DNA of 62,355 nt from a virus. Its lineage: Duplodnaviria; Heunggongvirae; Uroviricota; Caudoviricetes. The position numbers are program-made. The stretch lies in the IMG/VR virus record IMGVR_UViG_2534682166_000005, one strand, 5' to 3'. Positions 1-3,000 of the stretch are shown piece by piece. Numbering within the stretch: the stretch's first letter is position 1; each line of letters starts with the position of its first letter.

Positions 1-3000
1 ATGAAGGCTGAAATCAGCCGTAGAAGTCTGATGAAAACCTCCGCACTTGGCAGTCTTGCGCTGGCAAGCAGTGCTTTCACTCTGCCATTTTCTCAAATGG
101 TCCGGGCGGCAGAGGCTCCGGTAGAAGAGAAAGCGGTCTGGAGTTCCTGCACCGTTAACTGCGGGAGCCGCTGTCTGTTACGTTTGCATGTGAAAGATGA
201 CACCGTGTACTGGGTGGAGTCTGATACGACAGGTGACGACGTCTACGGTAATCATCAGGTTCGCGCGTGTTTACGCGGGCGCTCTATCCGCCGACGGATG
301 AATCATCCTGATAGGTTGAAATATCCCATGAAGCGCGTCGGCAAGCGCGGTGAAGGTAAATTTGAACGGATAAGTTGGGACGAAGCCCTGGATACCATCA
401 GTGATAATCTTCGGCGGATCCTAAAAGATTACGGCAATGAGGCTGTACATGTCCTGTACGGAACAGGCGTAGATGGCGGAAACATCACCAACTCAAACGT
501 CCCGTACCGTCTGATGAACTCTTGCGGTGGTTTTCTCAGTCGCTATGGCAGCTACAGTACCGCACAGATCAGTGCCGCAATGAGTTATATGTTCGGTGCC
601 AATGATGGCAACAGCCCGGATGATATCGCCAATACGAAACTGGTCGTTATGTTCGGAAATAACCCGGCAGAAACGCGGATGAGCGGCGGTGGTGTCACTT
701 ACTACGTCGAGCAAGCCCGCGAACGTTCAAACGCACGCATGATCGTCATCGATCCACGTTATAACGACACAGCTGCCGGGCGTGAAGATGAATGGCTGCC
801 CATTCGCCCAGGCACCGATGGCGCACTGGCCTGTGCGATTGCCTGGGTACTGATTACTGAAAACATGGTCGATCAGCCATTTCTCGACAAATATTGTGTT
901 GGTTACGATGAAAAAACTCTGCCCGCCAACGCACCACGTAACGCGCATTATAAAGCCTATATTCTGGGCGAAGGGCCTGACGGCATAGCTAAAACGCCGG
1001 AATGGGCAGCAAAAATCACCAGCATCCCGGCAGAAAAAATTATCCAGTTGGCACGAGAGATCGGTTCAGCAAAACCTGCTTATATTTGTCAGGGTTGGGG
1101 GCCACAACGACATTCCAACGGCGAGCAAACGTCCCGCGCTATTGCCATGCTTTCCGTTCTCACCGGTAACGTCGGCATAAACGGCGGCAACTCAGGTGTA
1201 CGCGAAGGTAGCTGGGATCTGGGGGTAGAATGGTTCCCGATGCTTGAGAACCCTGTTAAAACGCAGATTTCCGTCTTTACATGGACAGATGCCATCGACC
1301 ATGGTAAGGAAATGACCGCGACCCGTGATGGTGTTCGTGGAAAAGAAAAACTGGATGTCCCCATCAAGTTTTTATGGTGCTACGCCAGTAACACATTGAT
1401 CAATCAACATGGCGACATCAATCACACCCATGAGGTGCTTCAGGATGACAGCAAGTGCGAGATGATTGTTGGCATTGACCACTTCATGACGGCCTCGGCT
1501 AAGTATTGCGATATCCTGTTGCCCGACCTGATGCCAACAGAGCAAGAAGACCTTATCTCTCATGAATCTGCAGGGAATATGGGCTATGTGATCCTCGCCC
1601 AACCCGCAACCTCTGCAAAATTTGAACGCAAACCCATCTACTGGATGCTGAGTGAAGTCGCCAAACGCTTAGGACCAGACGTTTATCAAACCTTTACTGA
1701 AGGTCGCAGTCAGCATGAATGGATCAAATATCTCCATGCGAAAACGAAGGAACGTAACCCTGAGATGCCCGACTACGAGGAGATGAAAACGACCGGGATC
1801 TTTAAGAAAAAATGCCCGGAAGAACACTACGTCGCTTTCCGCGCATTCCGTGAAGATCCCCAGGCAAACCCGTTGAAAACACCTTCGGGGAAAATCGAAA
1901 TTTATTCTGAACGACTGGCGAAGATTGCGGATACCTGGGAATTGAAAAAAGATGAAATTATTCATCCCCTTCCAGCTTATACGCCAGGTTTTGATGGCTG
2001 GGACGATCCCCTGCGGAAAACCTATCCACTGCAGTTAACGGGCTTCCACTACAAGGCGCGTACCCACTCCAGCTACGGCAATATTGATGTGTTACAGCAG
2101 GCCTGCCCACAAGAGGTGTGGATCAACCCCATTGATGCTCAGGCTCGCGGTATCCGTCATGGCGATACCGTGCGGGTATTTAACAATAATGGAGAAATGC
2201 TGATTGCCGCAAAAGTGACTCCGCGTATTCTGCCTGGCGTTACCGCCATCGGGCAAGGTGCGTGGCTTAAAGCGGATATGTTTGGTGACCGGGTCGATCA
2301 CGGCGGCAGTATCAATATTCTGACCTCTCACCGCCCTTCACCGCTGGCAAAGGGAAACCCGTCGCACAGCAATCTTGTCCAGATCGAAAAGGTTTAAGGA
2401 GTAGCCCATGACCACACAATATGGATTTTTTATCGATTCCAGCCGCTGTACTGGCTGTAAAACCTGCGAACTGGCGTGCAAAGATTTTAAAGTTGGTTAC
2501 GTATCGTTTAAAATCAATTAGATAGCCCGTCATTTCTGCGCTCACACGTCCCAACATTGAAAAACATGCAAAGCTTTGTAAGCCGATGCAAAGCTTTGTG
2601 TGTCTCACTTTTGTCCCAATACCAATCCGAATCCACCCTTTGTCATCATTGAGAAATGGCAAGGAAGAAAAGGATGTTACTGCACGATTTGACAAATCCG
2701 CCAGAGCTATCGCATACTGACCGCACTACAACGTCAGCGGTCAACCGCACCCGATAGCTTTGCGGCTTTTTTATGCCTGTTTACAGGTATCGCCATATCA
2801 ATGGCGGGTCGAGAGAGCCTAATACAATACCCTTTCGGGAAATACGCTCCGCCGTCTGACGCGGTAGTTGAAGCCCGCCCCCCCCCACTAAGGTGGCAGT
2901 CAATACTAAAACGTCAGGAGTCATAATTATGACTAATCAACTCATTCCCGTTTTCGATGGAACCATCAACAACGAACCAGTTTTACTTTGCAATGCTCGC

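Follow-up and report, generated by a model that had tools for sequence, protein, structure and literature searches.

A stx-free, Stx-phage-like prophage integrated in ynfG of Escherichia coli O104:H4

Shiga toxin-converting phages that integrate at ynfG have been described from both Shigella and E. coli. The Stx1a phage phiPOC-J13 of Shigella flexneri was mapped to S1742 and lysogenised MG1655 in the homologue ynfG (Gray et al., 2014; PMC4193171), and phage 75/02 of S. sonnei uses the ynfG site too (PMC5447701). Stx1a and Stx1c prophages are located in ynfG ('dmsB') of E. coli O113:H4 and O112:H8 (PMC10562709; PMC12029490). The initial annotation of the DNA analysed here named ynfG as a site of Stx1-type phages in Shigella and E. 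coli, and these four reports bear this out. In O104:H4, prophage E was described with the attachment site rpsB/dmsB and 81 ORFs, at 2,525,555–2,595,666 of 2011C-3493 (Ahmed et al., 2012, PLoS One 7:e48228; PMC3486847). Prophages E and G both have the architecture of Stx-converting phages, with stx2a carried on G, and prophage E has kept its position in O104:H4 isolates of both 2009 and 2011 (PMC3486847).

The window, by which we mean the whole stretch of 62,355 nt that was analysed (IMG/VR record IMGVR_UViG_2534682166_000005), contains a ~59.9-kb lambdoid prophage that resembles Stx phages and lacks stx. With a probability of approximately 0.95, this element is the O104:H4 prophage E, site-specifically integrated in ynfG by its own tyrosine integrase. 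Prophage E represents the same element at the same place, and the window is ~100% identical to it outside the 25.5–41 kb stretch. The published coordinates bracket both of the junctions found here, and the published limits enclose 70.1 kb compared with 59.9 kb from att to att in the present analysis. Both the element and its insertion site are already published, and the finding is correct and ordinary. The features of the locus are listed in Table 1.

Table 1. Features of the ynfG locus and its prophage, in window coordinates.
Feature	Position	Strand	Description
ynfF	1..2397	+	ORF of 798 aa; named ynfF in 100% identical genomes; selenate/tellurate reductase catalytic subunit paralogue
Truncated ynfG	2408..2521	+	28 genuine codons (2408-2491), 9 phage-encoded codons and a stop (2519-2521)
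attL core TTTAAAG	2486..2492	no strand	7 bp; codons 27-29 of ynfG
Prophage body	2493..62355	no strand	~59.9 kb in O104:H4 genomes; continues 45 nt beyond the window to the attR core
Phage arm of attL	2493..2928	+	non-coding, 436 nt; 90.6% identical to the POCJ13 end
Long hairpin and U-run	2698..2775	+	RNA fold of 2690-2785: -30.6 kcal/mol, z = -3.9, 0 of 200 shuffles as stable
Antirepressor Ant, AntA/P22-type	2929..3564	+	first phage gene; Pfam AntA 6e-26, P22_AR_C 9e-9
Q-to-esterase gap	40673..41437	-	between Q (41438-41872) and the nanS-p-like SASA esterase (38762-40672); empty
Putative excisionase xis	60965..61336	+	123 aa; Pfam HTH_17 5.5e-9; overlaps the int start by 145 nt
Tyrosine integrase int	61192..62355	+	387 aa, last ORF; Pfam Phage_integrase (PF00589) 1.5e-45, profile positions 1-171 of 172

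At the left junction, ynfG starts ten bases past ynfF. When the window was aligned with both K-12 ynfG and the right junction of O104:H4 in a three-way comparison, it was identical to K-12 across 2400–2492, and the first foreign base was located at 2493, where T replaces A. The part of ynfG to the left of the junction consists of 28 codons and one additional nucleotide, the G of codon 29. Its reading frame continues into the phage and yields upon translation a 37-aa product, MTTQYGFFIDSSRCTGCKTCELACKDFKVGYVSFKIN. This stub contains the first CxxCxxCxxxC iron-sulfur motif only, with Fer4 Pfam matches at residues 6–25, and is labelled in RefSeq as a 4Fe-4S pseudogene without the C-terminus. At the outer edge of the window, base 1 is an in-frame ATG located 27 nt 3´ of the RefSeq ynfF start (448504 in the record versus ~448531). 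Because the window starts 27 nt inside RefSeq ynfF, an older model of this gene was probably used in the source record.

The right junction is located outside the window and was taken from near-identical complete O104:H4 genomes, such as NZ_CP027394.1. The last 24.9 kb of the window are 100.0% identical to the complete O104:H4 genomes, as are 901 bases around the left junction. The window ends at the int stop codon. Downstream of this codon, NZ_CP027394.1 contains a phage arm of ~45 nt (GTAATTGAATTAGAATGAGTTAAGCTCACGCTTTCAAGTGGTGAGCAACAAC), TTTAAAG (52 nt after the stop codon), the 3´ part of ynfG, ynfH and dmsD. Codon 29 of ynfG and the codons that follow are found directly after the attR core (L001 5937–5943), where the sequence reads ATCTTGGCC (ATCTTGGCCCGGAAG, ATCTTGGCCCGGAAGTCAG); upstream, the ynfG frame meets a stop 16 codons before the core. 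The distance from core to core is 59,920 bp. The two parts of ynfG, of 85 and 533 nt, sum to 618 nt and differ from K-12 by 0 amino acids and 3 nucleotides, such that removal of the element restores an uninterrupted gene. The same short core is present at both junctions, with attR read from near-identical genomes, and the ynfG site is empty in K-12. Since TTTAAAG is the sole block common to attL, attR and attB (the empty K-12 site), strand exchange must, on the basis of this alignment, have taken place within it. Dyad symmetry was observed near the core of attB (GCAAAGAT / ATCTTGGC), and the spacing in attP differs; core-type Int sites are not claimed from this symmetry because the spacing is not common to attP.

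These results agree with the initial annotation in its main points. A prophage inside ynfG had been proposed, and phage modules indeed fill 2493–62355 between two gene parts that sum to an intact ynfG. The gene had been read as correct for 28 codons with a switch to phage at ~2494, which is 1–2 bases away from the position given by the alignment, an immaterial difference. The integrase had been placed ~59 kb to the right and pointing outward, as found. The second junction and the 3´ part of ynfG were expected just past the window and, in genomes identical over the adjoining 25 kb, are located 52 nt past the int stop codon. A search for an att core duplicated at both junctions and a comparison with an uninterrupted ynfG had been suggested; TTTAAAG is present at both ends, and the site is empty in K-12. 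The operon is also split in the way described, with ynfE-ynfF-ynfG´ on the left and ´ynfG-ynfH-dmsD on the right.

The initial annotation also raised the possibility that the junction at 2494 is an assembly join. Among 5,426 complete E. coli genomes, 58 contained the left (attL) junction at a coverage of at least 80%, and 89 contained the int-ynfG´ junction; the genomes with these junctions belong to several serotypes and come from several sources. Because both junctions recur in these genomes, 58 of which were assembled independently with the same left junction, a chimeric contig joined at 2493 is a negligible prospect. The source assembly does appear imperfect elsewhere, with a patchwork of two alleles at 26–32 kb and a noisy segment of 470 bp that breaks an ORF. 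However, the join falls exactly on a 7-bp core that is repeated at the other end, the parts of the gene sum to an intact ynfG, and deposited phage genomes end at these very bases. The ynfG site is occupied in ~1–1.6% of complete E. coli genomes, by toxin-free and Stx1 phages alike, and an occupied ynfG is therefore no marker for stx1.

The product of int is a tyrosine recombinase whose catalytic domain is complete, and the gene adjoins one end of the element. It is located 58.7 kb from the left junction and is transcribed outward, toward attR. At the nucleotide level, the int module is 99.5–99.7% identical to those of POCJ13, 75/02, phiSTEC1589-Stx1c and PhiR5_2. The start of int is overlapped by an ORF with an HTH_17 domain, and in phage epsilon34 the homologous DNA carries the annotation excisionase. 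RefSeq contains only the first 22 codons (66 nt) of this ORF, marked as a pseudogene fragment. The 123-aa product is probably Xis, with the size and position of the P22 type.

The non-coding phage DNA at the opposite end, between the attL core and the antirepressor gene, presumably represents the long arm of attP. This arm contains, at 2566–2579 and 2586–2599, two perfect direct repeats of 14 bp, ATGCAAAGCTTTGT. A search for further copies in the window returned these two adjacent copies only, and 14 of 100 shuffles gave at least two matches, so that the number of copies is by itself not significant. As a guess from the sequence, the repeats could be candidate arm-type Int sites. The arm also contains a long hairpin with a U-run, which in the circular phage is positioned downstream of int across attP and in the lysogen just past the ynfG stub on the operon strand. 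By analogy with lambda tI/sib, the likely role of this hairpin in the circular phage is that of a terminator or sib-like element acting on int transcripts. Closer to the antirepressor gene, a run of nine C residues is present at 2878–2886, 43 nt upstream of the start codon. Several genomes match the 901-nt left-junction stretch with a span that is 2 nt shorter, and the C9 tract may be variable in length.

In lambda, the overlap is 7 bp long, attB is intergenic and the tI/sib terminator is located beyond att. The insertion in ynfG is an ordinary site-specific integration of the lambda type, in which the phage tyrosine integrase would have recombined phage attP with chromosomal attB through the common 7-bp core TTTAAAG. 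As in lambda, the integrase gene adjoins att and is transcribed toward it, and the identity core is short, of the size of the lambda overlap. A long non-coding arm is located on the far side, and the hairpin beyond att would affect int transcripts only while the phage is not integrated. In contrast to the intergenic attB of lambda, the target used here is inside a coding sequence, which the insertion would inactivate. The arm-type, IHF and Xis sites and a sib-like retroregulation are at most putative in this element.

In the phage collection, the Shigella phages 75/02 Stx and POCJ13 matched best, and E. coli Stx1 and Stx2 phages came next; the first 19.5 kb were 93–95% covered. POCJ13 is collinear with the window prophage over most of its length, in 15 blocks of 88–97% identity. 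When reverse-complemented, the POCJ13 record starts at window base 2493 and ends one base before the attR core. The element shares with POCJ13 and 75/02 a collinear genome of high nucleotide similarity and the same integrase, attP and target (int module 99.5–99.6% identical, ends identical). Both of these phages occupy ynfG/S1742, and their records end at the core, as does the window prophage. Parts of the early and immunity regions, at ~44–47.6 kb and 51–54 kb of the window, differ, with no megablast match of at least 300 nt to POCJ13. The int module of phiSTEC1589-Stx1c is 99.6% identical, and the family of this phage is classed as Diegovirus. The prophages of O113:H4 RM10410 and O112:H8 STEC1586/1589/1590 use the same target, but they are toxin-converting and reside in other host lineages.

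POCJ13 and 75/02 carry stx1AB between Q and nanS-p, whereas the window prophage does not. Stx phages carry tRNAs and stxAB between Q and a nanS-p-like esterase, and tRNAs of the ileZ/argN/argO type are typical of the stx region. The corresponding interval in the window is empty, and that of POCJ13 is ~1.5 kb longer. When StxA and StxB of POCJ13 were compared with the whole window by tblastn, the best E value was 0.7. A tRNA scan of the window returned none, so that tRNAs of the ileZ/argN/argO type are absent as well, and no Shiga toxin is called in the annotation of identical genomes. The lack of a StxA or StxB match, the shorter Q-to-esterase interval and the lack of tRNAs together establish the prophage as a stx-free relative of the Stx1 phages that target ynfG. 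With no stxA or stxB downstream of Q, it is kin of the Stx-converting phages and not one of them. That the nearest kin of the element in the phage collection are Stx1 phages of this very site could suggest a Stx1-converting phage whose toxin genes were overlooked. This is extremely improbable in view of the tblastn result, the interval that is ~1.5 kb shorter than in POCJ13 and the annotation without Shiga toxin.

Judged from its sequence, the stx-free element is a short-tailed, Stx-phage-like lambdoid phage (Sepvirinae, Diegovirus-like). The list of modules was taken from the annotation of the identical region in complete O104:H4 genomes, according to which morphogenesis, lysis, replication and immunity modules are present between the two junctions. 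The annotated modules comprise the antirepressor, ead-like genes and an 8.3-kb gene with LPD domains; tail-tip, tail-fibre, lom and cor genes; an N4-gp56-type capsid, portal and terminase; a lysis cassette, the SASA (nanS-p-like) esterase, Q, nin genes and replication genes; and cII, cro, a LexA-family repressor, kil, RecE, Gam, Bet, Exo, a small HTH protein and int. This gene layout is that of the short-tailed Stx phages. The capsid protein is extremely common (24,756 blocks), and its look-up was uninformative.

Compared with the complete O104:H4 genomes, the window has 426 differences, all of which are located in 25.5–41 kb and most of which fall within the head and adaptor genes at 26–32 kb. 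For 25.5–32.5 kb, no complete E. coli genome or phage record exceeded ~94% identity. In the head, adaptor and portal genes at 26–32 kb, blocks of the ynfG-prophage allele alternate with blocks of a second allele, that of TL-2011c, which served as a stand-in for the resident Stx2a phage (Stx2a-phage-type allele). The lengths of the ORFs are kept, the reading frames are preserved and the changes are mostly silent, with the exception of ~27760–28225. A synthetic or random origin was rejected for most of this patch because the ORF lengths are kept and the changes are mostly silent. The exceptional segment of ~470 bp contains dense base shifts and doublings that resemble neither of the two alleles nor any relative, and it destroys a 129-aa ORF that the relatives have between the capsid gene and a 153-aa gene. 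This segment looks like low-quality sequence and not like evolution. Taken as a whole, 26–32 kb is most simply read as two similar co-resident prophages that were collapsed, or assembled at low quality, in the source record; the alternative is real gene conversion between such prophages. The oddities of this region leave the junction untouched, since the junction was verified independently in many genomes. The O104:H4 outbreak lineage contains a stx-free phage whose structural genes are nearly those of the resident Stx2a phage. This phage may serve as a partner in recombination and is an apparent source of assembly confusion.

The damage to the head genes bears on whether the prophage is a fixed, defective (cryptic) remnant that neither excises nor forms particles, in which case the split of ynfG would be permanent in the lineage. 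Several observations are consistent with such a remnant. RefSeq lists pseudogenes in the element (ead/Ea22 fragments, a regulator fragment and xis as a fragment of 22 codons), the gene for the 129-aa head protein has no open frame at ~27787–28176 in the window, and the prophage was conserved in place in the O104:H4 isolates from 2009 and 2011 (PMC3486847). However, int is of full length and 99.5% identical to the int of phages that integrate and are inducible, and the 123-aa HTH_17 ORF, which matches a P22-type Xis in size and position, is open in the window. No module for morphogenesis, lysis or replication is missing, their ORFs are intact in complete genomes, and the damage to the head gene resembles sequence noise and not mutation. 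We consider a cryptic remnant unlikely, although it retains appreciable weight.

For the host, the insertion is predicted to inactivate ynfG, because the stub keeps only the first iron-sulfur motif and the 3´ part has neither a start codon nor that motif. The hairpin in the phage arm would probably terminate the ynfE-ynfF transcripts. With 60 kb between them and the operon promoter, the distal genes ynfH and dmsD would no longer be served by it and would be expressed only from internal promoters or by read-through from int. The gene dmsD encodes a Tat chaperone that is needed for the maturation of DMSO reductase. Between the int stop codon and the 3´ part of ynfG, a consensus scan, which says nothing on function, detected no terminator-like site, so that read-through from int into ynfH-dmsD would be possible. 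The literature on a dmsD-specific promoter offered nothing usable. It is doubtful that the insertion makes dmsD and ynfH dependent on phage transcription to the extent that they would be expressed only by int read-through. If this were true, an anaerobic respiratory function would be coupled to prophage state in every ynfG lysogen, Stx1-positive Shigella among them. For annotation, the result provides a prophage-split ynfG with the att core TTTAAAG and ~59.9 kb from att to att, and it has little importance beyond this use.

Three further groups of genes were observed in the prophage. A gene annotated as lipopolysaccharide core heptose(II)-phosphate phosphatase is located at 35850–36464 (+); it separates the lysis cassette from the terminase genes and is encoded on the opposite strand. 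A moron is an extra, independently transcribed gene that is not needed for phage growth; the phosphatase gene is a probable moron and could alter the lipopolysaccharide. Several toxin-antitoxin genes are present at the approximate coordinates ~44500–46200 and 17970–18110, converted from the record, and comprise a RelE/ParE toxin with an HTH partner, a Doc (death-on-curing) toxin, hokD and a second Hok/Gef gene. At 56798–60631, the gene for a RecE-family exonuclease of 690 aa immediately precedes a complete lambda Red set (Gam-Bet-Exo), which places two recombination systems, RecE and lambda Red, in one early operon.
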